A stretch of 64,000 nt of DNA, taken from positions 1-64,000 of the IMG/VR virus record IMGVR_UViG_3300018063_000012, one strand, 5' to 3'. The position numbers and the translations under genes were made by a program. Below are positions 15,282 to 60,356 of the stretch, one piece after another. This DNA is from a virus. The notes below the pieces were generated by a model that did no database searches, had not been told where the DNA came from, and was given only the letters and a program-made list of their open reading frames with translations. Within the stretch, counting starts at the first letter, position 1. Each line of letters starts with the position of its first letter.

Positions 15282-15677
15282 ATGGCACTATTTCCTCAAC
15301 TTCCTATCTGGACAAAGACAGAAGAGCACTTCTATGAGAAGATTGCTAGATCCGGACTATCAATAGCATTTGCTATAGAACAAGCACAGATGAATGGATA
15401 TCCTAAACGCTCTGATGAAGAGGTAGAGCGTCATTTTATATATAGACGACTTCCGTGGAAGTTGATTGCCAATACTTCGTATATGCCATATAAAGATGAA
15501 GAAGTCGAAGTGATGGATGACGCACCCAGTCTGGAACAAGGAGTAGATTTGACTGGCGGAGTTACAAGAGAGAGTAGGGAAAACTTCGACGGGAATATGG
15601 GTAGTAGTATTAATATGGGTAATGACCCGAGTATGGGAGAAGAACCTAACTTCGGAAATAAGAGGCGCAAGAAATGA
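15282..15677 (+). CDS. Hypothetical protein
   Basis: ORF starting MALFPQ right after upstream stop. Confidence 0.55.
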   Translation: MALFPQLPIWTKTEEHFYEKIARSGLSIAFAIEQAQMNGYPKRSDEEVERHFIYRRLPWKLIANTSYMPYKDEEVEVMDDAPSLEQGVDLTGGVTRESRENFDGNMGSSINMGNDPSMGEEPNFGNKRRKK

Positions 15678-15982
15678 CTTGGACAGACGAAGCCCGTAGA
15701 GCATCCGCTTTAGCACGTAGAGGTATAAAGCTAAATCCAAAGACCCCAAAACAAAATAAAGGTTTATTCCAACGAAAGCCATTTATTAATCCTCCGGGTC
15801 AGAAAAGGAAAACTTGGAAGCAGAGAAATACAGATGTTCTGAGAACTATGAAAACAAGCACTGTTAGGGGAGAAGTAAAAAGATTAAAATCAAAATATCC
15901 AAAACCCAGTAAATATGTTAAAAGAAATATTAAAAGATGGGAAAGAATTCTGAGGATAAAAGAATCAATAGGAGCTAAATAA
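15674..15982 (+). CDS. Basic 'MAW-tag' family protein (dispersed copy)
   Basis: MTWTDEARRASALARRG + K/R-rich body. Confidence 0.75.
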   Translation: MTWTDEARRASALARRGIKLNPKTPKQNKGLFQRKPFINPPGQKRKTWKQRNTDVLRTMKTSTVRGEVKRLKSKYPKPSKYVKRNIKRWERILRIKESIGAK

Positions 15983-27490: not shown

Positions 27491-27760
27491 ATGACTTGGA
27501 CAGACGAAGCCCGTAGAGCATCCGCTTTAGCACGTAGAGGTAAGAAAGTAGTCATTCCTAAACAACCTACTCATAAACAAATGGTAGGTCAACTTTTAAA
27601 GTGGAAACCGGAAAATTTATTTACAGCCCACTATCGGGCAATTGTGCATAAGATGGGGGGTCCCCCATGGAACCCAGCACAACTAAAAGCAATCAAAACC
27701 GCGTTTAATAAACGTTGGCCGGAATATCATAAAAAATGGCCGAGGATGTATCCGAAATGA
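27491..27760 (+). CDS. Basic 'MAW-tag' family protein (dispersed copy)
   Basis: MTWTDEARRASALARRG; first 52 nt identical to 15674. Confidence 0.75.
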   Translation: MTWTDEARRASALARRGKKVVIPKQPTHKQMVGQLLKWKPENLFTAHYRAIVHKMGGPPWNPAQLKAIKTAFNKRWPEYHKKWPRMYPK

Positions 27761-28335: not shown

Positions 28336-29847
28336 GTGCCCATTGCGATTACAGACGCGCAGATTAAAAAAGCTACAATATTTGTTGCAAAGAGAAACTA
28401 TCTACTATTCTTTAAATTCGTGCTTGGCGCGGATATGGAGGAGTTTCACCTTGAGTGGTTAGGATGGCTTCAGAATCGATATGTAAATATCCTCGCACCA
28501 CGTGACCACGGAAAGAGTCACTTTTTCACCGTTGGATATGCCATCTGGAACGCATACTACAAACGTCATAAATCAATTTACATTTTCTCTGCATCCGAAC
28601 GCCAGGCTGGAAAAATGCTTGCACGTATTAAAGATGAGATTGAAGAACGGCCCGACTTGTTATGGTTAAAACCACTTAAACTGGAACAGTGGAATAGACT
28701 AAGTATTAAGCTCTCAAATGGTGTTGAGATTCATGCCCAAGCAATCAACTCGCGCACACGCGGCCCGCGCGCGGGACTTATTATTTTGGACGATATTCTG
28801 GACGAGAAGAATTGCGCTACTAAAGATATGCGTGAGACAATGGATAACGTAGTGTTAGAGAAAATTTTACCTATGTTGAATAAGGACTTTAAGGACCGCC
28901 AGTTTATCGTAGTTGGAACTCCACAGCACTACAAAGATACACATCATACGCTCCTGGCTAATCCACTGTTTAAAGGGAAGAAGTATAAAGCCATTATCGA
29001 CGAGAATAACAAAATAGTATTGTCACCACGACGTAGACCATACGAACGTCTTATGGAAGAAAAAGCGGCGATGGGATCCGTACTTCGATTTACTAAAGAA
29101 TATCAGTGTGAACCTGTAGACGAATCAAGTACCATATTCCAGATGAAACTATTGGGGATGGCAAAGGATATAAATTCCATAGCACCATTATCATACAACG
29201 GGACCGGTATCTGGAGAACATTTATGGGTGTAGACTTTAGCGTGCCAAATGTAACGAAGAACTGGACAGTCATCTGCGTGATTGGCGTTGACAACGTCGG
29301 GCGAATAACGCTTTTAAATCTGCACTGGTCCCGAGGACACAACTTCACAGCTCAAATGGCTATTGTAGAAGATGCCTGCACACGGTTTAACGTGTCATTG
29401 GGATTCCTTGAGGCAAATGCTTTTCAGGGTATTTATGCGGATACTATAAATGATAATACTGCACTGCCACTCAGAAAGTATGTGACTACAGGAAAAAATA
29501 AAAATGACCAGACTTGGGGACTACTCGGACTTGAAAATATGTTTATTACTCGCAAGATACTATTGCCGTATCATCCCGACGATGCACGAGGTAAGGCAAT
29601 GACGGATAGACTATGCCTTGAATTGAATCAACTACGGCTGGTAGATGGCAAAGTTAAGTCGGCGGGAGAGCATGATGATTGTGTTATGGCTTTCTGGCTT
29701 GCATTGTGTGCGGCGAGATCCGGTATCATAACAGCAGGAGCATCATCTATGCAGACTAATCCTTTCTTTAGAAGAGGGATGGAGCCAGGTAGTGGTAGAG
29801 GTCAGATAGGAAATATAGAGGGAAATCGAGGATGGAAAAAGTCTTAA
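28336..29847 (+). CDS. terL: Terminase large subunit
   Basis: APRDHGKS Walker A, IILDD Walker B, VGTP, MGVDF, E.NAFQ, HDDCV. Confidence 0.93.
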   Translation: MPIAITDAQIKKATIFVAKRNYLLFFKFVLGADMEEFHLEWLGWLQNRYVNILAPRDHGKSHFFTVGYAIWNAYYKRHKSIYIFSASERQAGKMLARIKDEIEERPDLLWLKPLKLEQWNRLSIKLSNGVEIHAQAINSRTRGPRAGLIILDDILDEKNCATKDMRETMDNVVLEKILPMLNKDFKDRQFIVVGTPQHYKDTHHTLLANPLFKGKKYKAIIDENNKIVLSPRRRPYERLMEEKAAMGSVLRFTKEYQCEPVDESSTIFQMKLLGMAKDINSIAPLSYNGTGIWRTFMGVDFSVPNVTKNWTVICVIGVDNVGRITLLNLHWSRGHNFTAQMAIVEDACTRFNVSLGFLEANAFQGIYADTINDNTALPLRKYVTTGKNKNDQTWGLLGLENMFITRKILLPYHPDDARGKAMTDRLCLELNQLRLVDGKVKSAGEHDDCVMAFWLALCAARSGIITAGASSMQTNPFFRRGMEPGSGRGQIGNIEGNRGWKKS

Positions 29848-29910
29848 ATATTCGGACAGTCCTAACTGGTTTCTGTATGAAGAGATGGAGATATAAGCAC
29901 AGGAGACTAA

Positions 29911-31473
29911 ATGCCAGTAGATAAACCTAAAAGTGAAGTTGGAACATCAGTAGTTCCAGAATTACCAGCAATAAAAAAAGAGTATATTTCCGCTACTTTT
30001 GATACCGATATTCGACGGACAAAATTAAAACTACTTCGGAGATATATAGATTCGACCAATAAACCACCTTTTCCGGGATTGGATAAAGAAGACTCGGATG
30101 GTGTAAAACGTCGAGTAGCTGAAGGTATTGCAAGAGGAATTATAATCGAAAGAGTAGGTCTCCTCCTTGGAAGAGCTAAATTCGCCGGAGCAAAAGCTAT
30201 TGAGATGACTAACGATTCGGTAGAAAAATTAGTCAAAGACGTATGGGAGAAGAATAAATTATCTAATCAGATGAGACTGTTTCATCGTGCCGTTCTTTGG
30301 GCAGGTTGTTGTGGCTGGAAATTTGTTGTTGATCCAACTCAAGAGCTGAAGTATAGATTCAATTTAATTCCCCCAGAGCAGATATTTCCAAGATTTAAGA
30401 ATAAGGATGACCAGACCGCGTATAATATATCATACTGGGATATTATGTATAAACGGATAGACGGTTCATACTACTTGGAGCGAATTGGACCGGATTATTC
30501 AGTTGTGTATGAAGGTATACTTATGGATGATAAAGCCGTCCAAGATAACGCTGTAGCTACTCTGGGGATTACAAATCCTATTGAATTTGTTCCGGTTATC
30601 GTATTTGCACATCAGTTAGGGATATTTCCTTTTGTCTTTATGGCAAGAGACGCAGATACAAGTATTTTTGGCGAATCATTGATAGAAGGAATCATTGACC
30701 GTATTGACCGAGTGAATGAGATATTAGTCAATTCACTTTGGGCGATGAGAAATATGGCCGACCCCATTATGGTTATTCGAGGGGCTAAAAAAGAACATCT
30801 CTTTAAAGATTCAGATGCCATATGGTTCTTGCCTAATAAAGACGGCTCCGTCCAAATATTAACTTGGGAAGGTGTAACCGATGCAACGTATAAAATGATT
30901 GAATATTTAGTTAAGCGAATGCATAAAGAATGCGCCGTGCCTTTGATACTTAATTCTTTTGACCAAAATATTCCAGATCTATCTTCAAGAGCTCTTGAGA
31001 TTATATATACAGATGCTGTGAATGCTATCGAAGGAGAGCGTGATGACTATGAGACGATGTTCAAACAGATATTTAATCTGATTGTAAAGGCCGCACAAGT
31101 TACTAAAGAAGAAAACATTCCCACAGATGAGAAAGCGGCAGAACTTAAAGAAATTAGATGGGGTAGTATCCTTCCTGTAGGAGCGGACAATATTGTAACT
31201 CTTACAATTCAAAAGTATAGTTCCGGTCTGATTGACCAACAAACCGCACTGGCTGAAATGGGATACCAGGAAGAAAAGATTAAGGAAATTATGCAACTAA
31301 CCGCCGCTCAAGCCGCCTCACAGAACGCTCCGGGAATGGATGGTGGCGGTGGCGAGACTATGACTTGGGCTGAACTGGCCCCGGAAGACCAGCAAGCATT
31401 AACAGATGCCGGAATTGACCAGACACAATGGGAAACACTTACATTAGACCAACAGAAAGGTATACTCGGTTAA
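29911..31473 (+). CDS. Portal protein (SPP1 gp6-like)
   Basis: Follows terL; H.LG.FPFV, GES.IE..ID, LS.RAL, W..ILP. Confidence 0.8.
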   Translation: MPVDKPKSEVGTSVVPELPAIKKEYISATFDTDIRRTKLKLLRRYIDSTNKPPFPGLDKEDSDGVKRRVAEGIARGIIIERVGLLLGRAKFAGAKAIEMTNDSVEKLVKDVWEKNKLSNQMRLFHRAVLWAGCCGWKFVVDPTQELKYRFNLIPPEQIFPRFKNKDDQTAYNISYWDIMYKRIDGSYYLERIGPDYSVVYEGILMDDKAVQDNAVATLGITNPIEFVPVIVFAHQLGIFPFVFMARDADTSIFGESLIEGIIDRIDRVNEILVNSLWAMRNMADPIMVIRGAKKEHLFKDSDAIWFLPNKDGSVQILTWEGVTDATYKMIEYLVKRMHKECAVPLILNSFDQNIPDLSSRALEIIYTDAVNAIEGERDDYETMFKQIFNLIVKAAQVTKEENIPTDEKAAELKEIRWGSILPVGADNIVTLTIQKYSSGLIDQQTALAEMGYQEEKIKEIMQLTAAQAASQNAPGMDGGGGETMTWAELAPEDQQALTDAGIDQTQWETLTLDQQKGILG

Positions 31474-31893
31474 ATGGCCGAACCATTAGTTCCTGAGACC
31501 ACCAAAGAATTACCCGTAGCAGAGACTGAAAAAGTCGAAATGCTCCGGAAGAATGTAACAGACTTCGTCGATTTAGACACGGAACTGGAAAATAAACTAC
31601 AAGCTAAATTGGCTGTAGCCCTAAATAAGGCACTGGCCGCTCTACGCAAGGAATTAAAGAAGATACTCGAATCACCCGAAGGTCACGATTATAACTCAAA
31701 GAAATCTAAACTGATGATTGAAAAGGCGGTAGCACAGTTCAATGAGGAATGGGTGATAGAAGCTAATAAAATATTGGGTCCGGAAATTGAGGCTTCCGTT
31801 TCACGCGGTATACTCCAGAGCAAGGATATGATCGCGGTTGTTGAGGGAGATAAGAGTCAACTAAGAAAATATACGAAGAGCGAGGCTAAATGA
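31474..31893 (+). CDS. Hypothetical helical protein (possibly N-terminal part of minor head module)
   Basis: ORF after portal. Confidence 0.5.
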   Translation: MAEPLVPETTKELPVAETEKVEMLRKNVTDFVDLDTELENKLQAKLAVALNKALAALRKELKKILESPEGHDYNSKKSKLMIEKAVAQFNEEWVIEANKILGPEIEASVSRGILQSKDMIAVVEGDKSQLRKYTKSEAK

Positions 31894-33227
31894 GTAAGAG
31901 AGATTGGACAGCGGAAGAAGAAGCTTTTTATAGGAAACACGCACGTAAGAATTGCTTATTGAGAGATACTATTGACGAGGCAGTATCCACCAAGTTACCA
32001 AGACGCACCCCTAAACAAGTAAAAAGTCATTTTGAGAATACTGGTGAGTCGTGGACTGGAATGGGTGGGGCATCCGCACGGACCGCACTTAAAAGTATTC
32101 CAGATAAAAAACCAATATCGACATCTGAAAAAGTTGTATATGATAAGCAGATTCAAACTCTAAAGTCACAGAATGCTGAAGTACTGTCTAAGTATAAATC
32201 AGTGCTTCAACAAGTTGGACGGAAAGAATATATATCAGCATTGATTAGCGAAGCCTGCACCAGATTGTCCAATGATACTCTGGAGATAGGAAAATTCAAC
32301 CCGCCGAAGAGAGATAATAAAGGAGTCATAGACGAGACAATGGTGATGATTCTCAGTGACTTGCACGCGGGTGAAGCGGTGAGTGAAACGGATACTATGG
32401 GATTTGGAAAGTATGATGAAATCCTTTTCCAACGACGAATGGAGTATTATGTTGATATTGTAAAATTATATGCAAGAGACTTACTGAGTAATTATCGATA
32501 TCGAAAGCTACATATTTTCTGTCTGGGTGATATGATTACTGGACTGATTCACGAGGAGCTGATGCAGTATCAGACATTGTCTCTTGTTGAATCGGTTATC
32601 CTATGTGTCAAAGTAATGGAGAGAGTCATTCTGGATTTACTTAATACCTTCGAGACAATTGAATTGGACTGCGTAGTTGGCAATCACGGTAGATTAAAAC
32701 AACAGTATGTGCATAAAAAACGGGCGATAGATAACTTTGATTTCATCTGCTATAAGATGCTCGAGGCTTCCTTCGCAAGTGAGAAGCGGGTGAAGTTTGT
32801 GATAGCTGATGCACCGCATTTGATTGTAGATGTTGAGGGCTGGAAATGGTTCCTAACTCACGGAGATAATATTAAATGCTTTAATGGAATTCCGTACTAT
32901 GGCGTGATGCGGGAGATTAAGAAATGGGGAGATTTAATGGCTGCCCAGAATTGTGCATTTGACTATGTCTGCCTAGGACACTTTCATACAGCGTATACTT
33001 TTTCACGGGCGAATAACGGTAAAGTATTCGGGAATGGTTCCTTGATTGGGCCGACCGAGTATTCATTAGACGGTTCATTCGATCCGGCTTGTGCATCCCA
33101 ATGGCTACTGGGCGTGCATAAAGAGATAGGTGTAACACTGCAGATTGACGTATATCTACAAGACCCAAAAATAAAAGAAGACTATAGATATAACTTTACT
33201 GTAAAAAAGAATAACCAGAAGGCCTGA
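31890..33227 (+). CDS. Calcineurin-like metallophosphoesterase with N-terminal HTH/coiled coil
   Basis: SDLH, LGD, GNHG, THGD, GHFH motifs. Confidence 0.85.
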   Translation: MSKRDWTAEEEAFYRKHARKNCLLRDTIDEAVSTKLPRRTPKQVKSHFENTGESWTGMGGASARTALKSIPDKKPISTSEKVVYDKQIQTLKSQNAEVLSKYKSVLQQVGRKEYISALISEACTRLSNDTLEIGKFNPPKRDNKGVIDETMVMILSDLHAGEAVSETDTMGFGKYDEILFQRRMEYYVDIVKLYARDLLSNYRYRKLHIFCLGDMITGLIHEELMQYQTLSLVESVILCVKVMERVILDLLNTFETIELDCVVGNHGRLKQQYVHKKRAIDNFDFICYKMLEASFASEKRVKFVIADAPHLIVDVEGWKWFLTHGDNIKCFNGIPYYGVMREIKKWGDLMAAQNCAFDYVCLGHFHTAYTFSRANNGKVFGNGSLIGPTEYSLDGSFDPACASQWLLGVHKEIGVTLQIDVYLQDPKIKEDYRYNFTVKKNNQKA

Positions 33228-33228
33228 T

Positions 33229-33852
33229 ATGGCTGATTTATCCCGGATTAAACTAAGCAAACGTCTAAGAGGAAAACTAGACTTTTATAGAAAGGCTGGA
33301 ACACTTAAAGCGGCTGGTTTTAGTGGTCGAGAGATGCAACGGATTACTAACTTCCTACGAGAGACCTCATCTAATAAAATCACAGCAGTAACGGATTTAG
33401 TACGGTCCCAGATACAACGCACGCTTGCAGATGCGCACGCTAATCAACTACCATTTATTTCGGTAGTGAACAGACTTGTAGCTGAGACTGACTTAAATAG
33501 AGGGATATACTCCACTGTGAGAAAGAGGGCCGCGGTGATAGCAACTAATGAGTTACATCGCGCGCGTACGGCCGCTATGTTCGCGCACGCGGTAGACCAA
33601 GGATATACTTATTTTGTCTGGATTTCGGTGCTTATGCAGTCTACTTGCCCTATCTGCCAGCGAAGGCACGGACGTAATAAGACTTGGGAATCTTGGTTAA
33701 AGATTGGGATTCCACCTGCACCACATGTAAATTGTAAATGCACATTGGTGCCCGGACGGGGTATACCTATTCCGCGAGAGCCCATTCAAAGGACAGTGGT
33801 TAGAAGATTAGGTATTATGACTCGAATGCTAAGACAAGCACCGAATGTTTAG
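33229..33852 (+). CDS. Minor head/head morphogenesis protein (SPP1 gp7/Mu gpF-like)
   Basis: RA.VIA.NE..RA, TCPIC, PP.PH.NC.C. Confidence 0.8.
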   Translation: MADLSRIKLSKRLRGKLDFYRKAGTLKAAGFSGREMQRITNFLRETSSNKITAVTDLVRSQIQRTLADAHANQLPFISVVNRLVAETDLNRGIYSTVRKRAAVIATNELHRARTAAMFAHAVDQGYTYFVWISVLMQSTCPICQRRHGRNKTWESWLKIGIPPAPHVNCKCTLVPGRGIPIPREPIQRTVVRRLGIMTRMLRQAPNV

Positions 33853-35954: not shown

Positions 35955-35977
35955 ACGCACATATTTAGAAGGAGTGT

Positions 35978-37628: not shown

Positions 37629-38091
37629 TCTTGGATGCGGCAGTGAAGAGATATTATCCGGATACATCAATGTTGATATTCGACCAGTGCATACAGCAGT
37701 GAGAATAGATGATATTATTTATCTTTCAACCTTTGAATCTAATATAGTAGATGAAGTTCGGGCGAGCCATTGTATTGAGCATATTCCAGTTGAACATATT
37801 CAGACTGCAGTTAATAATTGGGCCCGAGTATTAAAACCAAGTGGGGTGCTATTTGTGTATTGCCCAGACGGCCATTTGATCGCCCAGGACTTAATAGACA
37901 GTAGAATTAATATTAGAGATTTTTCTTACTATATTTTTGGTGCCCAGACATATAATGAAAATTTGCATAGGGCCGCATTTGATTATGAGCGGTTAGTAGA
38001 TGTCGTCCAAAAAGCAGGATTAACTGTAATTGGTCCCGCGAAACGTCCTAAATGTTATAGATATGAACTCGGGATTCACTGCATAAAATGA
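37615..38091 (+). CDS. SAM-dependent methyltransferase (type 11-like)
   Basis: KLNLGCG...GYINVD, ASHCIEH, RVLKP.G. Confidence 0.85.
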   Translation: MLKLNLGCGSEEILSGYINVDIRPVHTAVRIDDIIYLSTFESNIVDEVRASHCIEHIPVEHIQTAVNNWARVLKPSGVLFVYCPDGHLIAQDLIDSRINIRDFSYYIFGAQTYNENLHRAAFDYERLVDVVQKAGLTVIGPAKRPKCYRYELGIHCIK

Positions 38092-39098: not shown

Positions 39099-39102
39099 TA
39101 AG

Positions 39103-39723
39103 ATGAAATTTGAAAAGTTGATATTACCATTTGCACCTGATGTATATTGGACTCGGGGATACTCTCACGCTATATCGAAACTTTCCGATAAGATTTCCTG
39201 TAGTGATTCGCAAGCAGAGTTACTATACAATCTGGCGTTACAATTACCTTTTCGTTCAGTGATAGTCGCACTGGGTATATGGACTGGAAAGTCGACTATT
39301 GCAATGGGAGAAGCTGCCAAAGAAAAAAGCCATCGCATATATGCAGTTGACCATTTTATGGGGAGTCCCTCTGATGAGACTAAAGACTTGTCCCAACAGA
39401 GAGATATTGCTTCCGAATTTCAGGCCAATGTTGATAAATTTGGACTAGGACATTGGATTAGTACTATTCATTTTCCCTTTAATGAACTACTCTCTTGTTG
39501 GACAATTCCGATTGATTTAATTTTTATCGATGGAGACCACGAGTATGCCAGTGTAAATAATGATATAAATGGATGGGCGGGATGGGTTAAAGTAGGCGGG
39601 ATAATAGCGGGACACGACTACGATATTCCGGGAGTAGAGCAAGCAGTTAAAGAAAGTTTCTCAGAGTTTACGGTAGAAGATAATATCTGGATTGCTAAAC
39701 GAGTGTATGACCAAAAGGTATGA
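39103..39723 (+). CDS. SAM-dependent methyltransferase (type 24-like)
   Basis: LG.W.GKST, AVDHF.G, IDLIFIDGDHEY..V..D, GGIIAGHDY. Confidence 0.88.
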   Translation: MKFEKLILPFAPDVYWTRGYSHAISKLSDKISCSDSQAELLYNLALQLPFRSVIVALGIWTGKSTIAMGEAAKEKSHRIYAVDHFMGSPSDETKDLSQQRDIASEFQANVDKFGLGHWISTIHFPFNELLSCWTIPIDLIFIDGDHEYASVNNDINGWAGWVKVGGIIAGHDYDIPGVEQAVKESFSEFTVEDNIWIAKRVYDQKV

Positions 39724-40430
39724 TGTATAATTTTTCAGTAGTGATTCCAACATATAATAGACCACACACTTTACTTCGAGCGATAGGTTCGGTATTATCC
39801 TGCGATAAACCACCAGACTCCGAGATTGAAGTGATTGTAGTTAATGATGGCGGAAACTGGGTAGATATCGGAGGTATGACTAAAGGAAATGTAACTATTA
39901 TTAATTCCCTTTCTAATATTGGAATATCAGCCGCACGGAATGTTGGGGTGCAAGAAGCTAAACATTCGTGGATTTGTGTATTGGACGATGATGACTGGTA
40001 TCAACCAAACTATTTTAAGTTGTTAAAGAAAGCAATTATCGAACAAAGTGATAAAGAATTTTTCTATACAGCCTTCTGGGACTGGAACTGCGGAGATGAG
40101 ATATACTGTTATTTTAGACAAGCACAGTCCTTTCAGCCAGAGAAATTATCAAGAGCGATATATCGAAAGGATTTTATAGGCGCATCAACGATGAGTTTTA
40201 CTAAACATGCGTGGCAGAGCGTAGGCGGATTTGATGCGGACTTACGATGCAACGAAGATTGGGACTATAAGATTAAAATGTGTAAGATGTTCGGGGCTGG
40301 AATTGTAGAGACAGCAGTAGTGAATATTACTACTCATGAAAATGGGATATATAAACAGTGTGTGAAGTCTGGTCTGGCAAAGCAGACAGAGCGCATTGTG
40401 AAAGAAAGATATAAGGAATTGGCAGAATGA
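39720..40430 (+). CDS. Glycosyltransferase GT2
   Basis: SVVIPTYNR, VVNDG, G.SAARN.G, LDDDD, EDWD. Confidence 0.92.
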   Translation: MMYNFSVVIPTYNRPHTLLRAIGSVLSCDKPPDSEIEVIVVNDGGNWVDIGGMTKGNVTIINSLSNIGISAARNVGVQEAKHSWICVLDDDDWYQPNYFKLLKKAIIEQSDKEFFYTAFWDWNCGDEIYCYFRQAQSFQPEKLSRAIYRKDFIGASTMSFTKHAWQSVGGFDADLRCNEDWDYKIKMCKMFGAGIVETAVVNITTHENGIYKQCVKSGLAKQTERIVKERYKELAE

Positions 40431-41176
40431 CTACGATTATAATATGTGTATTCGGTAGGTCAGAACTAACTCGAAAGTCCCTGCAATCACTGATTGATAA
40501 TACCGATGGATCCAGATATCGTCTGATTATAGTAGATAATGGTTCTGGTCCTCAGACACAACAAGTTTTACGAGACTTTCAAAACCGTATCAATTTATTG
40601 ATCCTGTCCAGCCAGAATCACGGGAAACCATATGCGTGGAATCTGGGATTCCAAGCGGCAGAGACTAATTGTATTTTTCATTCAATATCGCCATCCGAGA
40701 TTTATGTGTTTGCAGATAACGATGTCGACTACAAAAAAGATTGGCTAAATAAGATGGAGAGAGTATATGAAAGACTAAGACAGAGGAAAGAAAAAATTGG
40801 GATAATGTCAGGATTCGCATCACGGGGTGCCAAGATATTACGAGAAGAATTACTGCATTTTACTAAGGATGGACAGTCGTTGATTGATGATGCCAGCAAT
40901 ATACTGGCCCCAACGACTGATAGGATAGAGACTATAAAAGTGCAAATGGTAAAGTATCCGGCCGGATGTAACTTTATGATTGGCCGAGACATACTACTAA
41001 ATGAAGGACTGTTTAATACTGATAGACTAATTCGAGCCGTGGATACGGAGTATGCTAAATTCCTGACCTTGAAAGGGTATAGGCATTTTATAGTGCCAGG
41101 AATGGTTAATCATCTGGGAGAACATCAACGCACTTGGAAGATAGGTGCCCAGAATGAAGTGACTTTATATAACTGA
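40427..41176 (+). CDS. Glycosyltransferase GT2
   Basis: IIVDNGS, N.G...AWN.G, DNDV....WL. Confidence 0.88.
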   Translation: MTTIIICVFGRSELTRKSLQSLIDNTDGSRYRLIIVDNGSGPQTQQVLRDFQNRINLLILSSQNHGKPYAWNLGFQAAETNCIFHSISPSEIYVFADNDVDYKKDWLNKMERVYERLRQRKEKIGIMSGFASRGAKILREELLHFTKDGQSLIDDASNILAPTTDRIETIKVQMVKYPAGCNFMIGRDILLNEGLFNTDRLIRAVDTEYAKFLTLKGYRHFIVPGMVNHLGEHQRTWKIGAQNEVTLYN

Positions 41177-41617: not shown

Positions 41618-42439
41618 ATGTTTAGAAAGTTAGCGAGAGTCATAGGACTATTTGCCTTGTTGTGCTTAGGGTGCGCGAATACATCCTGCGATACTTTTAA
41701 AGAACGGATAACGATGAAAAATCCGGATATTAAAAAAGTATACGTTGTTCACATCACGGGTAGAATATCAACAGAATGGATTCGTAGAGCAGACAGTGCT
41801 TTACGAATAGCTAATGGGGATCCCGTAATTTTCCATATTAACTCGCCGGGCGGCGGAGCATCAGAGAGCTTCCTGACAGAACACGGACTTTCACTGTTAA
41901 GGAAGAAGTATATGTCGCCAGTATATGTGTACTCAGATTACGGAATTTACTCCGGAGGATATCTAGCGGCACTTCCACTGGGCAAGATAGTTATCGCACC
42001 GGCCGGTGGGGTAGGATCCATTGGTGTAATTAGTGAGGTTGATATAATCGTAAAGTCAGATTCTATGCGGGGAATTAAACGTATTCTATTTCGTTCAGGT
42101 AAGATGAAATGGGTAGAAGCTGGGTATTATGAATTGACACCCGAACAGACTAAGTACCTACAGAGTATCGTCGATAATGTGTACTCAATGTTTATAGATA
42201 GGATTATTGTGAATCGTCACGACGCTGTCTTTAGAGCAGTGGCTAACAGATTACATAAACAACCATCAATTGCACAAGTAGACTCTGTATTACGAGTTGT
42301 TTGTGATGGACGGGAATACGCACCAACCCAAGCACTTGCACTTGGACTAATAGACGGGGTTGCATATTTTGACGAGTTGTTAGAAGTAGTCAAGTATGAG
42401 AATATAATTCCGAGTGCAATGGTAGTCGATATTTATTAG
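41618..42439 (+). CDS. S49 (SppA-like) serine peptidase with lipoprotein-like signal
   Basis: INSPGG, SGGY, VGSIGV, SG..K, A..LGLIDG; N-terminal LLCLGC. Confidence 0.85.
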   Translation: MFRKLARVIGLFALLCLGCANTSCDTFKERITMKNPDIKKVYVVHITGRISTEWIRRADSALRIANGDPVIFHINSPGGGASESFLTEHGLSLLRKKYMSPVYVYSDYGIYSGGYLAALPLGKIVIAPAGGVGSIGVISEVDIIVKSDSMRGIKRILFRSGKMKWVEAGYYELTPEQTKYLQSIVDNVYSMFIDRIIVNRHDAVFRAVANRLHKQPSIAQVDSVLRVVCDGREYAPTQALALGLIDGVAYFDELLEVVKYENIIPSAMVVDIY

Positions 42440-49156: not shown

Positions 49157-49396
49157 ATGGCTTGGAGTGAAGCGGCAAGAGCCGCATCGGCGGCAGTTAG
49201 ACGACAACGTGGTAAGAAGATTACACCCATGCGACGGAAAGAGCCAGCATATGCTCGAGTAAGCAGGGTGCTGAGAAAGTTGCATCGGGAAAAAACGAAA
49301 GCGGACATCCCTTATCCCAATGCAAAAGAAACAAGTCGATTTAGAACTTTGCAAAAAAGGATTCGTAAAGTTAAGAGTTATACAGTCAAAAGGTAA
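49157..49396 (+). CDS. Basic MAW-tag family protein, array member 1
   Basis: MAWSEAARAASAAVRRQRGKKITP. Confidence 0.8.
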   Translation: MAWSEAARAASAAVRRQRGKKITPMRRKEPAYARVSRVLRKLHREKTKADIPYPNAKETSRFRTLQKRIRKVKSYTVKR

Positions 49397-49398
49397 AG

Positions 49399-49632
49399 AT
49401 GGCTTGGTCAGATGCGGCACGAGCCGCCAGCGCTCAAGTTAGACGTCAGCGGGGTAAGAAGATTATACCAAAAAGACAAATAAAGAGATCGCTAACTAAA
49501 AGGTATACTCCAGTTCAATTGGAACGCATTAAAGCTGGTCGCCCCCATAAGGGTCGTGAAGGTGGGCTAACAAGACGAGAACATAAAAAAGGTATTAATA
49601 GATATGTTCAAATTATGCGAGGACAAAGATAA
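49399..49632 (+). CDS. Basic MAW-tag family protein, array member 2
   Basis: MAWSDAARAASAQVRRQRGKK...RGQR. Confidence 0.8.
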   Translation: MAWSDAARAASAQVRRQRGKKIIPKRQIKRSLTKRYTPVQLERIKAGRPHKGREGGLTRREHKKGINRYVQIMRGQR

Positions 49633-49922
49633 TGGCCTGGAGTGATGAAGCGAGAGCGGCGGCGTTAGCTAAAAGAAAGGCGAGTCCTAAAAATCGTCAG
49701 AGTAATAGGAAACGGGTGCTAAGTCCATATGGGAATATGAAACGTAAACAGACAGCAGGAATTCTATTCAAACGCAAACAAGCGTATCAAGTAGTGCAAG
49801 GGTTAAAGAAACAATTCACTAAAGCTTTAAAGACGGGTAATGAAGCCCGCGTAAGGACATTACGTAAAAGATATCAACGAGTGAAAGATACTGGATTTTA
49901 TATTAGTCGGGGAGGCAGATAA
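49632..49922 (+). CDS. Basic MAW-tag family protein, array member 3
   Basis: MAWSDEARAAALAKRK...RGGR. Confidence 0.8.
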   Translation: MAWSDEARAAALAKRKASPKNRQSNRKRVLSPYGNMKRKQTAGILFKRKQAYQVVQGLKKQFTKALKTGNEARVRTLRKRYQRVKDTGFYISRGGR

Positions 49923-50264
49923 ATGGCTTGGTCAGATGCCGCAAGAGAGGCTTCAGCAAGAGCACGTAAAGGGGGATTTGGTAGATTACGTGCGGCAGTA
50001 GATAAAAGACGTAAACAACAATTAGAAGGGAGTAGTGTACTATCCTTAAAAAATATTAATCAACTTAAACGGATTCGTAATCGTCAAGCTCGTCGAATTG
50101 AATCTAAAGTTAAAAGTTTACGAGCTAAAGCTACTGGCACATATGCCGGACACCCATCAGATAGACGAGCGCATAGAGCAAACTTAAGACTTCGTAAATT
50201 ACAAAGCTCTAAATCAGGAAGTATGGCTGGAGTTAATTGGCATATAAATAGAGGTGGACGGTAA
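49923..50264 (+). CDS. Basic MAW-tag family protein, array member 4
   Basis: MAWSDAAREASARARK...RGGR. Confidence 0.8.
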   Translation: MAWSDAAREASARARKGGFGRLRAAVDKRRKQQLEGSSVLSLKNINQLKRIRNRQARRIESKVKSLRAKATGTYAGHPSDRRAHRANLRLRKLQSSKSGSMAGVNWHINRGGR

Positions 50265-50587
50265 TGGCTTGGACAGACGAAGCCCGTAGAGCATCTGCTT
50301 TAGCAAGAATTAATCGCGGACCTAAACGTGCTAAATATGAACGTGTTATCCGTAAAGTTGATAGGGCGATTAAGAATGACCGTCAAACTATTAATAATAT
50401 GCAAAAAGTTATTGCTGGAATGCGGAAGGTTAGACCGGCGATAAGGGAAGTTCAGAAAGCACAGAAACAGTTAGGTAAATATTCTAAACGGTTCCAAATA
50501 AATAAAAAGAGGGCATTGAGAGTGAGACTACGATATCCCGGTTTTTCAGGTTATAAAGGAATTGATATAGCTAAAGGAGGCAGATAA
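50264..50587 (+). CDS. Basic MAW-tag family protein, array member 5
   Basis: MAWTDEARRASALAR...KGGR. Confidence 0.8.
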   Translation: MAWTDEARRASALARINRGPKRAKYERVIRKVDRAIKNDRQTINNMQKVIAGMRKVRPAIREVQKAQKQLGKYSKRFQINKKRALRVRLRYPGFSGYKGIDIAKGGR

Positions 50588-50908
50588 ATGGCTTGGTCAG
50601 ATGCGGCACGAGAGGCCTCAGCAAGAGCACGTAGAGGAAACAGACGGATTAACCCTACTGTAGCAGTAAGTAGAAGTAAAGGGATTTCGTAAGCTTCCGA
50701 AGGACAAAGAGAGGTAACTATAACTGGACGCCGTTCCTGGAAGGCAAAGATATACCATCCGGGGAAGGGGTCACTGAAAAGACTTAGAAAACTTATTAGA
50801 GCAAGTAAAAAGAGTGGAAATGTCAAAAATGAGACACGGAGACCGCTGCGATACACAAAAGGAGCTACTAAATTACATACATTTTTTCTAATTAAAGGTG
50901 GTCGTTAA
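50588..50908 (+). pseudogene. MAW-tag family array member 6 with in-frame TAA at 50690
   Basis: MAWSDAAREASARARRG...KGIS*ASEG...IKGGR* in a single frame. Confidence 0.75.
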
Positions 50909-50967
50909 AAAGTGGTATCAGAAAGAGTAAAAGATACCGAACATTATATTATTAGAGGTGGACGATA

Positions 50968-51240
50968 ATGGCTTGGGGACCTGAGGCAAGAGCGGCTAGT
51001 GCTTTGGCTAGACGAACGAGCAGAGGATTTGCAAAATTAAATAGACAGAAACGTTTAACTCTTAAACATGCATCCAAATTGACAATGTTACATAAGAAGC
51101 TTTCTGGCATAGGTAATGTAATAGGTAAAAATCATCCTATGTATAAGATCGCCCAAAAACGGTCAGCAAGAGTGTTTCGTAAATTACAATCACTGAAAAG
51201 TAAACGTCCAGAATATTTTGTGAGTAGAGGTGGACGGTAA
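50968..51240 (+). CDS. Basic MAW-tag family protein, array member 7
   Basis: MAWGPEARAASALARR...RGGR. Confidence 0.8.
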   Translation: MAWGPEARAASALARRTSRGFAKLNRQKRLTLKHASKLTMLHKKLSGIGNVIGKNHPMYKIAQKRSARVFRKLQSLKSKRPEYFVSRGGR

Positions 51241-51572
51241 TGGCTTGGTCAGATGCGGCACGAGCCGCCAGCGCTCAAGTTAGACGTCAGAGAGGTAAGA
51301 CTCTAACTGGATCTAAATTAACACCGGCAGGTGCTAAACCATTACAGAAACAGTTAGCGCGACTACGCGTCACAAGACAATCCCAGCGGAGAAACGCATT
51401 AGCAGATTTTAGGCTTAAACATGTCACCAAAACTTCACCCGGAATGCGAAAAATATCATTTGCTGAACGCAGGAAATTTTTGAGAGGATATAGAGGGACT
51501 AAAGAGAAAATAAGTAAAACATTGAAACGATTGAGATTCGTTAGAAATGCATCTAAGAGAGGGGGCAGATAG
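51240..51572 (+). CDS. Basic MAW-tag family protein, array member 8
   Basis: MAWSDAARAASAQVRRQRGK...RGGR; first 51 nt identical to 49399. Confidence 0.8.
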   Translation: MAWSDAARAASAQVRRQRGKTLTGSKLTPAGAKPLQKQLARLRVTRQSQRRNALADFRLKHVTKTSPGMRKISFAERRKFLRGYRGTKEKISKTLKRLRFVRNASKRGGR

Positions 51573-52254: not shown

Positions 52255-52536
52255 ATGGAACTGATGAACAATGTAATAAAGGCCAAAGAATCCTTTAAAC
52301 GACTGGAGTTACATAAATCTATCAGAGAAAACTACAAGAGTAGGAAGTTTATTTCCTTCTGCGTAGTCTGGTCCTTCGGAAGCTTGATGTTTTATATGAA
52401 AGCGATGACCGCCGCTGAATGGATCGGATTCTCCGAATGGCTATTAGGTATATTTTTCTTTTTCAATATCGCCGACAAATCGGGGTTACTGGGGATGATT
52501 AAGAAACAGGATAGCGATACTGAGAGATTGAAATGA
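52255..52536 (+). CDS. Holin
   Basis: SRKF + two TM helices + N...K, in lysis context. Confidence 0.65.
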   Translation: MELMNNVIKAKESFKRLELHKSIRENYKSRKFISFCVVWSFGSLMFYMKAMTAAEWIGFSEWLLGIFFFFNIADKSGLLGMIKKQDSDTERLK

Positions 52537-52994
52537 AGTCTATAATTCAGATAGAAAAAGATAGGGAGTATCAACGACTTTATAAAATAAAGAAGTCTAT
52601 AATTCAGATAGAAAAAGATAGGGAGTATCAACGACTTTATAAAATAAAGAATAGAGATAAGATTAATAGTCAAGTCCAAGCGTGGGTTAAAAATCATCCT
52701 GACTATTATCCCGAATATAGGTGTCAGTATAAGTACCAAATATCATTTAAAGATAAACAAGATATGCTGATTAACCAGAATTCTGAATGTGCTATCTGTA
52801 GACAATTACTACAGATAGATAAAGCGTTTATTGACCATGACCACAAATCAAGTAAGATACGAGGATTACTGTGTTATAATTGTAATATGGGGATAGGTCA
52901 TTTACATGATTCTATAGTTGTTCTTGAACAAGCTATTGAATATCTAAAAATATATGCTACGGATACTTCTACAACGACTAAAGATAAAAGGTAA
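52533..52994 (+). CDS. Endonuclease VII-like HNH homing endonuclease
   Basis: Q..ECAIC, IDHDH....IRGLLCYNCN.GIG. Confidence 0.85.
   Translation: MKSIIQIEKDREYQRLYKIKKSIIQIEKDREYQRLYKIKNRDKINSQVQAWVKNHPDYYPEYRCQYKYQISFKDKQDMLINQNSECAICRQLLQIDKAFIDHDHKSSKIRGLLCYNCNMGIGHLHDSIVVLEQAIEYLKIYATDTSTTTKDKR
52535..52651 (+). repeat. Perfect 57-bp tandem duplication
   Basis: KSIIQIEKDREYQRLYKIK twice, identical DNA. Confidence 0.9.
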
Positions 52995-53744: not shown

Positions 53745-54569
53745 ATGTCACAGACAAAAACTGAAGACGAATTGAAGAAAGAGGCGGAGGAAAAAGCACA
53801 GGAAGAGGCGAAGGCTAAAGCCGAGGCTGAAAAGAAAGCTAAGGATGAGGCAGACGCGAAGGCTAAAGCAGAGGCAGAGGAAAAAGCTAAAGCAGAAGCC
53901 GAGGTTAAGAAACAGCTTGATGATTTAGTTAAGCGTGGAATTTTGAAGAAAGAGGGCGGGGTATTAGTTGAGGCGAAGTTTGACCCAACTTTGACACCAG
54001 CCTACAAAGAGTTAAACACAACGGTAGTTCAGAAAATAAGCGCCGCAACAGATAGAGTTGCACAACTCGAGAAAGAGTTGGAAAAGACTTCAAATGTCCT
54101 TAAATCAAAAGAGGATATGGAAGCGGCAGACAAACAGCGGATGACCGAGGAGTTGAGTAAATTGAAAAGTGACTTGACGATTGAAAATCAAAAGGCTCGC
54201 GAAGCCGGGATTCAATTGCTGAAGACGCAAACTGCGGTAAAAAAGGGATTGCCCTTTAACTTCTTGGCGTATGTAACTGGAGAGACGGCCGAGGCGATTG
54301 AGGCCTCAGTTGAGAAAGTAATGGGAGATTTCGCTCTTCAAGCGAATAAATTTACTAAAGAACAGTTACAAGCCGCAGAGGCCGCGGCCGCAGAGAAGGC
54401 AAGCAAGGAGACCGAGGAGAAACTAAAACCTCGGGGTAAATCAACCCAGAATGCCGCTGAACCGGGACATATCTTTACTCGCGAAGAGATTAGAAGAATG
54501 ACCTCGGCTGAATTTGCTGCAAACCGAGTCGATATCCTGCGCCAACAGAGCGAAGGATTAATAAAATAA
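53745..54569 (+). CDS. Capsid scaffolding protein
   Basis: A/E/K-rich coiled coil, C-terminal FTREEIRRM...F, directly before MCP. Confidence 0.75.
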   Translation: MSQTKTEDELKKEAEEKAQEEAKAKAEAEKKAKDEADAKAKAEAEEKAKAEAEVKKQLDDLVKRGILKKEGGVLVEAKFDPTLTPAYKELNTTVVQKISAATDRVAQLEKELEKTSNVLKSKEDMEAADKQRMTEELSKLKSDLTIENQKAREAGIQLLKTQTAVKKGLPFNFLAYVTGETAEAIEASVEKVMGDFALQANKFTKEQLQAAEAAAAEKASKETEEKLKPRGKSTQNAAEPGHIFTREEIRRMTSAEFAANRVDILRQQSEGLIK

Positions 54570-54584
54570 ACGGAGGATTAGACT

Positions 54585-55877
54585 ATGCCCAGTTCATTAG
54601 GTAGTCAGAATTTAGCACCCAACATTGCGGAAGCTTTTGGTAAACTTGTACCAGAAGTGTTTTCGCAGGAAATCGAGTTGAAGACTCGGGAATTGGGGTT
54701 TACCCGATTTCGGGATTTTGTAGTTTTGAAAGAGGATCTGCAGAAAGATCCAGGGAATTCTCTTCACATTCCTAAAGTAGCTGAATTGCGTGGTGCGCAG
54801 AGCCTCGGTCAGACTAAAATTCTGGCTGGGTCCGGTCAAGCTATTAACACTGGCTTTTTGACCCTGACTCCGACTGAATTTGGTGATGAGATTCAAATCA
54901 CCCAGTATGCTGGCCTTGTATCGCCATCTGATTTGGTAGATATGGCACGTGAACTGTTAGCCCGTCAGGCTCTGAAGTCTGAAAATTTTACAGTTCGTGA
55001 CGTTATGTTCGGAGCTTCCGCTAACCGGCGTTTCGCTGGTGGTGTGGCCGCGAAGACTGACGTTACCGCAGATTTAGACAAGGATGATATCGACGCTGTA
55101 GTCGAGAACCTTGAGAACAACGAGTCTTTGAAATGGGCAGGAGAAACCTTTATGGGTTTCATCCATCCGTTTGCGAAAACGGTCATTTTGAATGATGTTG
55201 TGAGCGCCGCTGTGTATCAGGCCGCAGTCGGTGGACAGCTGTATGCTGGTGAGATTGGTATGGTAAATAGATGCCGGTTTATCGAATCTTCCTACGTTCC
55301 TCAGGATGCATATTCTGCGGCTGGGTTGGCTTCGGCCGGTTCCTCCGGTATTACGATCGCTGATGCCAATGGTTATACTTTGGCTCCGAATCTGTGTCGA
55401 GCGGAGACGATTACCTTTACGTATACTGCTTCTGGAGATTCTTGGGCCGTGTCCGGTTCCAAATCCGGAGCGCGTAAAGCCGCTCTTTTTACTTCGACTG
55501 ATAACCCGAACGATGCTACGAAGAGTCCTGTGGTGGCGAAAGCCGCGTCATATACTGACGGTAACGCAACGACTTATAAAGTGGCGTTGGCTGTGGAAGA
55601 TGAAGATGGGAATACGATCGGCTACGATGTTGTACTGAACGCTGGCGCTATGACTGGCGCGGCCTCTGATGACACCGCTACATTGCTGATTGTGGTTCAT
55701 ACCTTGACTTCTATTTTCGGTCAGAGACATCTGGCCTTCGGTGTGATTAAGCCAGTTACCTTCTTGGGTGCTGAGGCATTTGACTATGGACGTATCGTGG
55801 GCATAGCTTGGAACGCGTTTTGGGCATGCGACTTTCTTCATAAATCATATGGATATGTCATGCAGGCTCTAAGGTAA
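54585..55877 (+). CDS. Major capsid protein (N4-gp56-like HK97 fold)
   Basis: PEVFS, G..L.IP, GFIHP, GEIG...CRFIES, DYGR..GIAW. Confidence 0.85.
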   Translation: MPSSLGSQNLAPNIAEAFGKLVPEVFSQEIELKTRELGFTRFRDFVVLKEDLQKDPGNSLHIPKVAELRGAQSLGQTKILAGSGQAINTGFLTLTPTEFGDEIQITQYAGLVSPSDLVDMARELLARQALKSENFTVRDVMFGASANRRFAGGVAAKTDVTADLDKDDIDAVVENLENNESLKWAGETFMGFIHPFAKTVILNDVVSAAVYQAAVGGQLYAGEIGMVNRCRFIESSYVPQDAYSAAGLASAGSSGITIADANGYTLAPNLCRAETITFTYTASGDSWAVSGSKSGARKAALFTSTDNPNDATKSPVVAKAASYTDGNATTYKVALAVEDEDGNTIGYDVVLNAGAMTGAASDDTATLLIVVHTLTSIFGQRHLAFGVIKPVTFLGAEAFDYGRIVGIAWNAFWACDFLHKSYGYVMQALR

Positions 55878-57113: not shown

Positions 57114-57613
57114 TGATTAAAGTCACCATAGAAAAAAATGACCTTGATAAACTTAAATCATTATTTTCTGCATTAGGGGAGAATGCTCCAAGAGCCGCCG
57201 ATGGACTTATGCAGACTATAGCATCAGATTTGAAGTTCGCCTTTAAACAGAATCTATGGGAACGTAAACTAAAATTGGAACCACTTAAACCATCATACTT
57301 ACAGAGTAAAGTTGCAATGGGTAGGTTTCCACAAATATTGATTAGCACAAGTCAAATGGTAGCGTCGGTAGAATCTCGAAAATTAGAGAACTTTGTATAC
57401 TTTATTGGAGTACCATCAGGGAAGGTGCATAAAAAGACAGGTATTAAATTGAGTGATTTGGCGATGATACATGAGTTCGGTTCAATTGCAAGAGGTATAC
57501 CACCACGTCCAGCTTGGACATTGACAGCAGTGCGATTTGAGAAACAGGTGCCAAAGATAATTGATAAGTTCCTAACTAAGTTCGCTAAAGATTTACTAGC
57601 AGGTAAAGTATAA
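57113..57613 (+). CDS. Neck/virion morphogenesis protein
   Basis: LI.T.Q..., A.IHEFG....IPPRP. Confidence 0.7.
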   Translation: MIKVTIEKNDLDKLKSLFSALGENAPRAADGLMQTIASDLKFAFKQNLWERKLKLEPLKPSYLQSKVAMGRFPQILISTSQMVASVESRKLENFVYFIGVPSGKVHKKTGIKLSDLAMIHEFGSIARGIPPRPAWTLTAVRFEKQVPKIIDKFLTKFAKDLLAGKV

Positions 57614-57936
57614 TGGCTTGGACAGAGGCCGCAAGAGCCGCGAGTGCATTAGTTAGACGACAGCGTGGTAAGAAGATTACTCCAATAGGAGATAAGAAAT
57701 TTGCCGGACTTAAACTAAAAGCAACTGGAAAATCACTAACGAAAAGAGTACCGTTCGGTATTAATAGAGCGGGGAAGACTGTATATACAAGAGTGCCGAT
57801 AAAACCAAACCTGAAGTATAAGAATAGGAAATCTAATCAACAGAAACCCTTTGTTCCAAGTGGTAGATTTTATAACGTGGTAGGACGCCACGGCTGGAAG
57901 AAGAGGATTAAAAATACAATAAAGTTGGGCGGATAA
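57613..57936 (+). CDS. Basic MAW-tag family protein (dispersed copy in neck operon)
   Basis: MAWTEAARAASALVRRQRGKKITP. Confidence 0.8.
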   Translation: MAWTEAARAASALVRRQRGKKITPIGDKKFAGLKLKATGKSLTKRVPFGINRAGKTVYTRVPIKPNLKYKNRKSNQQKPFVPSGRFYNVVGRHGWKKRIKNTIKLGG

Positions 57937-58847: not shown

Positions 58848-60356
58848 ATGACAATTGGGATTAACATAACAGAGTTGGTGTCGCAAGGTTCACCGGTCTT
58901 AGAAGGTGATAACGAACTGACTCCGGGATTCTTGGTAGTGTCTAAACGAGGCCCGGCTGACTTTCCAATACTGATTACCAGTATGAATCAATTCAAAAGA
59001 CTATTCGGTGAGCATACTACTGCCGGATACGGAGCTTATGTTTTGGAAGGTTATTTTTTGAACGGCGGAAGAAAAGCTTTTGTGAGTCGTATAGTTGGCT
59101 CCGGTGCCGCGGCTTCCGCGGTTACATTGGTCGATAGAGCCAGTACGCCATTGGACACATTGACGATTGAAGCTGGATATAAAGGACGACTTGACAAAGG
59201 AACTTGGGGGGATAATCTATCGGTAGCTATTACTGATAACGTAGACGATACCACTCTGTTTGACTTAGAAGTACTTCTCTCCGGTGTGACTAAAGAAGTA
59301 TGGCGAGGAGTGACTCCTGCGACAGCTGTCACAGCAATAAATGACTCTGTATCAGGTTCCGAATATATCAAAGCGACTAACGAGAACTCTACTTCAACAG
59401 CACCGGATAATAATCCAGCAGTCGGAAGTTCAAACTTAAGTGCCGGTGTCGCAGGTTCCGCCCCGGCCGTTACAGCATATAATGGAGTGCAGGCTGACTT
59501 TACAGGGGTGTATGCTTTCGATGCACTTGATATTAGTCATCTGGCTAATGCGGAGTCGACTGATGCAACGCATTTAGATAATCTGCGAGATTATTGTTCA
59601 GCGAGAGGAACCATTCTTGGAGTGGCCTCTATTCCAGTTGCATCAACTGTGTCTTCCGCTAAGACATTCGGACAGGCATTGCAAATTTCAAATGCTTATA
59701 TGGCACTGTATGGCGGATGGGTTTTGGTGAGTGACCCAATTGGTTCGGGTCCTAATCCACTTAAATGGGTGTCCCCGGTTGGACATGTCCTTGGAGTATA
59801 TGCCAGAACATTGCGTGACCGTGGAGTGCATAAAGCCCCGGCTGGTGTAACAGACGGCCAGCTAAAAGGAGTTTTTGATATTGATATGGATGTGAATAAT
59901 GATACAGACTTGACAGACTTAGCCACTAATGGTGTGAATACGCTTAAGGCAGTGCCAGGTTATGGTAATTGCGTTCTGGTGTCCAGAACTCTCTCCAAAG
60001 ATGTTCGGTGGAGATTCGTGAACGTTCGGAACTTGTTTAACTATGTAAAACGGGCGCTGAAGAATGGATTGGCTTTCGTTCAGCAAGAACCGAATGATGG
60101 GGTGCTAAGGGCGAAGGTTAAGAATAACACTGTCCTTCCTTTTATGCGCACTTTGTTTCAGGCAGGAGCTTTTGGGTCCGGTAAATTTGAGGACTTGGTA
60201 AGTATCATTTGTGATGAATCTAATAACCCGCCAAACGAGATTGAGTTGGGAAATTTCCATCTGGATATGACTTTCTTCCCAAGCAAACCAGCGGAGAGTA
60301 TTTTCATCTCTGTAGCCCAGCAACAGACAGGTAGTTCAGCCGCGTCCGAGACTTAA
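58848..60356 (+). CDS. Contractile tail sheath protein
   Basis: RGP..P..ITS..QF...FG, YF.NGG, RGVHKAPAG, RTLS....WRFVNVR, EPND. Confidence 0.93.
   Translation: MTIGINITELVSQGSPVLEGDNELTPGFLVVSKRGPADFPILITSMNQFKRLFGEHTTAGYGAYVLEGYFLNGGRKAFVSRIVGSGAAASAVTLVDRASTPLDTLTIEAGYKGRLDKGTWGDNLSVAITDNVDDTTLFDLEVLLSGVTKEVWRGVTPATAVTAINDSVSGSEYIKATNENSTSTAPDNNPAVGSSNLSAGVAGSAPAVTAYNGVQADFTGVYAFDALDISHLANAESTDATHLDNLRDYCSARGTILGVASIPVASTVSSAKTFGQALQISNAYMALYGGWVLVSDPIGSGPNPLKWVSPVGHVLGVYARTLRDRGVHKAPAGVTDGQLKGVFDIDMDVNNDTDLTDLATNGVNTLKAVPGYGNCVLVSRTLSKDVRWRFVNVRNLFNYVKRALKNGLAFVQQEPNDGVLRAKVKNNTVLPFMRTLFQAGAFGSGKFEDLVSIICDESNNPPNEIELGNFHLDMTFFPSKPAESIFISVAQQQTGSSAASET

Follow-up and report, generated by a model that had tools for sequence, protein, structure and literature searches.

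The window analysed here comprises the first 64 kb of a 101,317-bp IMG/VR virus record (IMGVR_UViG_3300018063_000012; estimated completeness ~82%), which derives from an uncultured phage of freshwater sediment and carries all of its genes on the + strand. Positions 49157-51572 of this window are occupied by a tandem array of small, strongly basic genes, whose products in this phage open with a common tag, a predicted N-terminal helix of 16-20 residues with the consensus (M/K/N)-(A/T/G)-W-(S/T)-(D/E)-(A/E)-A-R-x-A-(A/S)-x-x-(A/V)-R-(R/K). A first-pass annotation made from the sequence had listed eight open reading frames (ORFs) in this array. By the ORF listing and the sequence, seven head-to-tail genes beginning with MAW are intact, a further unit has a TAA within its reading frame, and an orphaned 3' end is also present; the array is real, but one of the eight units counted earlier is broken. 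The set of tagged genes is also larger than reported, with three more copies starting at 15674, 27491 and 57613.

Unit 1 of the array (49157..49396) encodes 79 amino acids (aa) with the tag MAWSEAARAASAAVRR and a net charge of +21. It is followed by unit 2 (49399..49632; 77 aa), the first 51 nt of which are identical to those of unit 8 and unrelated after that, and by unit 3 (49632..49922; 96 aa), which overlaps the stop of unit 2 with its start (ATAATG) and ends in YISRGGR. Unit 4 (49923..50264; 113 aa) has a body weakly similar to that of unit 7 (z 4.9), and unit 5 (50264..50587; 107 aa) has an orthologue in another metagenome, P0011, that is 74% identical over the full length. In the broken unit 6 (50588..50908), 34 codons lead to the TAA at 50690-50692, behind which 71 codons ending in KGGR continue in the same frame with no start codon that would permit separate translation. 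The orphan 3' remnant (50909..50967) consists of 18 codons ending in ..EHYIIRGGR and a stop, resembles the 3' end of unit 3 and holds the ribosome-binding site of unit 7 (50968..51240; 90 aa), which carries the variant tag MAWGPEAR. Unit 8 (51240..51572; 110 aa, net charge +29) closes the array. The dispersed copies, likewise on the + strand, lie at 15674..15982 (102 aa, tag MTWTDEARRASALARR), at 27491..27760 (89 aa), where the gene overlaps the start of a 199-aa gene preceding the large terminase, and at 57613..57936 (107 aa), where its start overlaps the stop of the Neck1/tail-completion gene (TAATG). The latter two are translationally coupled to the pre-terminase gene and to Neck1, respectively. 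For the 57613 copy, too, an orthologue was found in another metagenome (P0009, 65% identical over the full length).

Scanning the entire 101-kb genome with a degenerate DNA pattern of the tag gave eight forward matches, none in reverse and none in a reversed control, and a hidden Markov model (HMM) of the tag returned exactly 11 matches of 27-46 bits, with nothing else above 5 bits. All 11 copies are rich in lysine and arginine (22-33%) and have net charges of +16 to +29; the charge reported earlier for unit 2, 24 K+R versus 4 D+E in 77 aa, was reproduced. Most units had also been described as ending in (R/K)GGR, which holds for 6/8 array units. The codons of this ending (AGAGGTGGACGGTAATGG or GGAGGCAGATAAATGG) also serve the next gene as its Shine-Dalgarno site and start, and the C-terminal similarity is thus at least partly a dual-coding effect. 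Contigs of two freshwater-sediment sequencing runs yielded no variants of the array and only assembly breaks at the repeated tag DNA.

Comparison of the 11 copies revealed that the tag is conserved as a peptide. Ser11 is spelled by six codons from both serine boxes and Arg8 by AGA, CGA and CGT, and over codons 1-16 the codon-pair differences amount to 294 synonymous versus 266 non-synonymous. From this extensive synonymous variation we conclude that selection acts on the tag peptide and not on the DNA. Alignability between the proteins ends after about residue 20, and only 2/55 pairs of bodies (units 1/3 and 4/7, both with z about 5) exceeded z=3 against shuffled sequences, with a mean z of 0.33, which bears out the original impression of bodies without obvious alignment. 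The tag is therefore a separable module, under protein-level selection, on unrelated bodies, and the array is not an ordinary duplicated family, as had been proposed. The bodies themselves are real and constrained rather than junk, because the orthologues of unit 5 and of the 57613 copy, which come from a related phage, match them over their full length. Two groups of copies (units 2/8 and 5/15674/27491) share identical 5' blocks of 43-51 nt and then diverge abruptly, which indicates recombination at the tag; such recombination at the tag DNA is probably a consequence of the tag and not its purpose.

A search with a profile of the 30-residue tag against 1.84 billion representatives (cut-off E<=1e-3), of the kind that the first-pass annotation had proposed, revealed 661 cluster representatives. 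Among the best 148 of these 661, 97 are proteins of 46-180 aa with the tag at residue 1, 49 are proteins of 200-1948 aa with 2-6 internal copies only, and 2 show both placements. The internal copies, 126 in all, read (V/T/L)-x-(K/N)-(A/T/G)-W-(S/T)-D-(E/A)-A-R-x-A-(A/S)-x-(E/A)-A-R-(R/K) and are spaced by a median of 139 residues, about one small tagged protein. We ruled out that the long proteins are mis-called gene arrays, as the internal copies lack a Met and have the conserved (V/T/L)-x-(K/N)-(A/T/G) upstream. A degenerate DNA pattern scan of IMG/VR gave 56 loci. Once an unrelated family of 266 aa and some stray matches without a basic body had been removed, about 61 distinct small basic ORFs remained, which start with MAWSDAAR(A/E/R)AA(A/L)E(A/V)RR, lie each behind a ribosome-binding site and often number 3-7 per contig. 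Three complete phage genomes carry 4-6 copies each, and the overall range is 4-11 per genome. In 185,579 species genomes, by comparison, a scan returned mostly chance matches and real tags on only three contigs, and we therefore assign the family to free uncultivated phages rather than to prophages.

Altogether, 168 distinct tagged small proteins with a median length of 100 aa and a median net charge of +0.17 per residue were compiled. BLAST sorts their bodies into 142 components, of which 123 are singletons; at the loci L022 and L063 the net charge of the bodies reaches +51. The peptide is kept, in differing codons, by phages whose GC content ranges from about 40% up to that of visibly GC-rich contigs. 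In line with the earlier proposal of an undescribed system, no model in Pfam, PHROGs, NCBIfam or PDB matched the tag or the whole proteins, the tag profile found nothing among PDB sequences at E<=10, and a full-text literature search for the motif strings retrieved nothing relevant. The ESM Atlas gave no feature match and only generic helical-hairpin structural neighbours for unit 5. When the tag-repeat proteins were compared by tblastn with 50,697 cultured or deposited phage records, a search of poor sensitivity for a 16-residue alanine-rich motif, the matches covered the DUF2213 domain only or nothing. Two further sequences were seen next to the tag or in a comparable setting. Next to the AW(S/T)D tag, P0094 has three copies and P0028 one copy of a second short repeat, (D/N)AGTSEGA(R/K)K(A/G)(A/W)x(T/S)R, which has the S-(D/E)-x-A-(R/K)-x-A core in common with the tag and could be its sister module. 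At L022:3430-3651, between terminase and portal, a 73-aa protein of net charge +24 without the tag opens with an alanine/arginine-rich helix (..AYALRRLAAARARN..) that is possibly a diverged form of it.

Genes for TerL, portal or MuF are present in 22/42 tag-bearing loci. The tagged genes were found immediately before TerL, in the TerL-portal or portal-MuF interval, or right behind MuF, and MuF is a separate neighbouring gene, the tagged proteins themselves having no MuF domain. In L014, three tagged genes are interleaved with small ones directly ahead of the gene for the major tail protein, an arrangement that mirrors the Neck1-coupled 57613 copy of the window.

The phage of the window itself encodes a large terminase (28336-29847), a portal (29911-31473) and a short MuF-like head-morphogenesis protein (33229-33852), with an exonuclease listed between portal and MuF-like gene (within 28336..33852), followed by an SppA/S49-like head maturation protease (41618..42439), a scaffolding protein (53745-54569), an N4-gp56-family major capsid protein (54585-55877; PF13252 in its homologues) and a tail sheath (58848-60356). 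The closest cultured relative of the capsid protein is just 26% identical. Several features of this region were recorded in passing. The N4-gp56-family capsid protein and the tail sheath co-occur in one phage, the SppA-like protease is placed 12 kb upstream of the scaffold and capsid genes, and seven co-oriented ORFs of 158-338 aa fill the interval 34938-41176 between the MuF-like gene and the protease. At the beginning of an HNH/endonuclease VII-like gene (52533-52994), 57 bp are perfectly duplicated in tandem (52536-52649); the 19-residue block KSIIQIEKDREYQRLYKIK is therefore encoded twice, and the assembly graph breaks there. A promoter and terminator scan of 47.5-54 kb found fewer sites than in shuffled sequences.

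In other phages the tag is also joined to recognisable domains. A recurrent payload with the pattern FHGT...YLTxS gave a weak ART-PolyVal match, and its AlphaFold model (predicted local distance difference test, pLDDT, 74.6) had Tpt1/KptA/Arr ADP-ribosyltransferase (ART) folds as its top 20 Foldseek neighbours. At rank 21, the same model matched weakly (probability 0.66) to 9k3a_B, a 1071-aa chain of the cyanophage A4 pre-ejectosome, which hints at a fold similar to the predicted ART-like payload in a solved ejection protein. Other tagged proteins carry ParB-like domains or an HExxH zincin-like (zinc-peptidase-like) domain, two giant tag-bearing proteins have a 2H/LigT phosphoesterase at their head, and two tag-repeat proteins open with a DUF2213/prohead-protease-like domain that is followed by three tags. 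Since an enzyme of the prohead-protease type must enter procapsids, we counted the last case in favour of loading into heads. According to Iyer et al. 2017 (PMC5512222), ART, ParB-like, 2H and metallopeptidase domains are hallmark modules of phage polyvalent proteins, which are predicted there to be packaged and delivered with the phage DNA. The payloads of the tagged proteins match this set of domains predicted for virion delivery together with phage DNA.

The tag exists as a modular, widely distributed element that is selected at the protein level and occurs alongside head and neck genes, and we tentatively read it as a transferable handle that marks cargo of the virion interior. In function it would resemble the capsid-targeting sequence (CTS) of phage T4, without belonging to that system; this reading is the one we favour while rating it somewhat short of probable. 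The tag would be a short autonomous alpha-helical module, a handle shared by proteins that are produced together with the virion late in infection, and the eleven polycationic proteins of 77-113 aa would reside inside the head. Through the helix they would dock to something conserved in the procapsid during assembly or in the packaging vertex, while the variable basic body would be carried in as well, contribute to neutralising the DNA packed there and probably exit together with it. Elsewhere, the tag carries enzymes or recurs ahead of every segment of long proteins with several payloads. That the proteins are encapsidated, what they dock to, and that they neutralise charge and are ejected are steps that we infer. 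AlphaFold models of the ART-like payload and of the three-tag protein P0030 predict the tag as an alpha-helix, on which the invariant W3, A7, A10 and A/V14 would, from their spacing, line up on one stripe flanked by R8 and R15. When the 30-residue tag was modelled in complex with the major capsid and scaffolding proteins, the score was 0.00, which counts neither way; the AlphaFold2 model of P0030 was of low confidence (pLDDT 54; predicted TM-score, pTM, 0.19), and bundling of its tags was neither seen nor excluded.

A more far-reaching version, which we consider rather doubtful, takes the AW(S/T)DxAR helix, of ~20 residues, as a cross-clade address label with which many unrelated uncultivated tailed phages would load protamine-like proteins for DNA condensation, and also enzymes, into heads for co-injection. 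The enzymes loaded would be the ART, the 2H phosphoesterase, the ParB-like nuclease and the peptidase, and the long multi-tag proteins would represent strings of cargo units. For a label common to phages with unrelated capsids, the target would have to be universally conserved, either a feature of the packaging vertex or the DNA itself.

Several observations weigh against a loading handle. In a third of the best matches the motif is internal and present in 2-6 copies, unlike known N-terminal targeting propeptides, and because it is carried internally and repeatedly in about this share of proteins, a free N-terminus is not required. No conserved cleavage site or motif follows the tag, and in one complete genome with the tag no Phage_Mu_F domain was found. 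The tag is on average 67% identical (up to 94%) to those of phages without any BLAST similarity in TerL or portal, which is unusual for a peptide docking on fast-evolving capsid proteins; a universal ligand, for example nucleic acid, would account for it no less well than a capsid protein would. The basicity of the whole proteins makes nucleic-acid binding possible without involvement of a capsid. The first-pass proposal of a T4-like sorting signal accordingly survives in part: the head and neck gene context and the effector-type payloads agree with it, whereas the internal repeats, the SppA/S49-like protease and the missing cleavage motif do not.

Among the alternatives, a helix that itself binds nucleic acid, with small residues on one face (A6, A7, A10) and arginines at its flanks, is possible, if on balance unlikely. 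The tagged proteins would then be protamine- or histone-like binders of DNA or RNA in the infected cell, which condense or protect phage DNA for packaging or hit the host nucleoid or RNA, and targeting to the capsid by the tag would be unnecessary. The main argument for it is that the tag is retained by phages whose terminase, portal and capsid families are unrelated, as would suit a universal ligand. The net charge of the bodies (+16 to +29 here, up to +51 in L022/L063), the multivalent repeats of the long proteins, which suit avidity on a polymer, and the ParB-like and ART-fold (Tpt1/KptA-like) payloads, which act on nucleic acids, point the same way. The tag core (S/T)(D/E)AAR with its further small residues presumably resembles the basic leucine zipper (bZIP) basic region N-x2-AA-x2-(C/S)-R, but by inspection the base-contacting Asn and Arg of bZIP proteins are absent and replaced by W3 and S/A11. 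Moreover, the most conserved residues are a Trp and three Ala with only two Arg, positions 5 and 6 are acidic, no profile match to any solved DNA-binding chain was obtained, and the tight embedding in head and neck operons is not required by a model of this kind.

The remaining explanations appear weaker. The alanine-rich helix may instead be a self-association module, in which W3, A7, A10 and A/V14 at 4-3-4 spacing bundle paralogues or repeats into an internal core or scaffold-like body. We regard this as improbable: the conserved positions do form a heptad-like stripe of small residues, the tag is predicted to be helical, and several copies occur per genome and per polypeptide, but the model of the three-tag protein (pTM 0.19) had no packed bundle and the bundling of strongly cationic chains would be electrostatically unfavourable without a polyanion. 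It is still less probable that the array is an ordinary, fast-evolving paralogue family, in which the N-terminus is simply slower to evolve than a disordered basic tail, without any function of the tag in its own right. The residual similarity in two body pairs (z about 5) and faint common patterns in positional counterparts between TerL and portal could be read in this way, yet the tag also sits on unrelated folded domains and is repeated inside long proteins, homology breaks off sharply right after it, and 123 of the 168 proteins have singleton bodies. Least probable of all, with very little chance of being correct, is that the conserved junction (3' end, ribosome-binding site and first ~50 nt) is a DNA recombination site for cassette shuffling, of which the peptide is a by-product. 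The 43-51 identical nt in units 2/8 and 5/15674/27491, at which the assembly graph collapses, fit such a site, as do the broken unit and the orphan 3' end in the array. Against this, the extensive synonymous variation shows selection on the peptide, the peptide is kept across differing GC with different codons, and the internal copies in long proteins have no gene junction.

How proteins are chosen for the head alongside the DNA is known in detail in very few model phages. Hundreds of protein clusters from environmental phages carry the one short motif described here, which Pfam, PHROGs, NCBIfam and PDB lack. If the tag is indeed a loading handle, it would supply a rule by which the cargo of the virion and injected effectors could be predicted from metagenomic phage sequences, as well as a small tag for putting foreign proteins into capsids. 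If it is instead a new nucleic-acid-binding helix, it would define a large family of phage protamine-like proteins. The payloads of the tagged proteins include classic counter-defence enzymes.

Short signals that suffice to load cargo into a shell of the HK97 fold include the C-terminal tail of the HK97 prohead protease, the cargo-loading peptides of encapsulins and the C-terminal helices with which scaffolds bind coat proteins. Two of the tag-repeat proteins, likewise, begin with a prohead-protease-like domain; the known signals, in contrast, are C-terminal and lineage-specific, and no prediction of a contact with the capsid or scaffolding protein could be obtained here. The adenovirus core proteins VII, V and Mu are small, contain 25-40% K+R and are presumed to neutralise the charge of the packed DNA. 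They differ from the present proteins in being non-homologous, belonging to a eukaryotic virus and having no common modular leader on unrelated bodies. In bZIP proteins a leucine zipper follows the basic helix, whereas by inspection no zipper follows the tag.

The closest functional parallel is the T4 CTS of IPI-III and Alt. The internal proteins of T4 are diverse and have only their CTS in common (PMC3012670), and they are taken into the prohead core and pass into the host together with the DNA (PMC3012670; PMC5512222). Both systems place a short leader on otherwise unrelated, mostly basic small proteins, with several per genome in a variable locus, and both include an ADP-ribosyltransferase among the cargo. 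The leaders themselves, however, have no sequence similarity; the head protease here is SppA/S49-like and not gp21-like, no (L/I)xE site follows the tags in the window, and the present tag, putatively a packaging signal, is also an internal repeat and is common to phages with unrelated head genes. A second parallel is provided by the polyvalent proteins (Iyer et al. 2017) and the MuF toxins (Jamet et al. 2017), with which the tagged proteins overlap in their ART, ParB-like, 2H and zincin payloads and in gene positions adjoining the terminase-portal-MuF block. MuF polymorphic toxins combine an N-terminal MuF with a C-terminal toxin, whereas the tagged proteins have no MuF domain and those of the window no MuF or portal fusion. 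Under the terms searched, Iyer et al. 2017 (PMC5512222) contained no recurrent tag helix. Polyvalent proteins combine 2-15 effector domains per polypeptide, whereas the proteins of the window are single units of 77-113 aa with no known domain; the long tag-repeat proteins of other phages resemble polyvalent proteins more, with P0020, P0144 and P0027 approaching their multi-domain layout.

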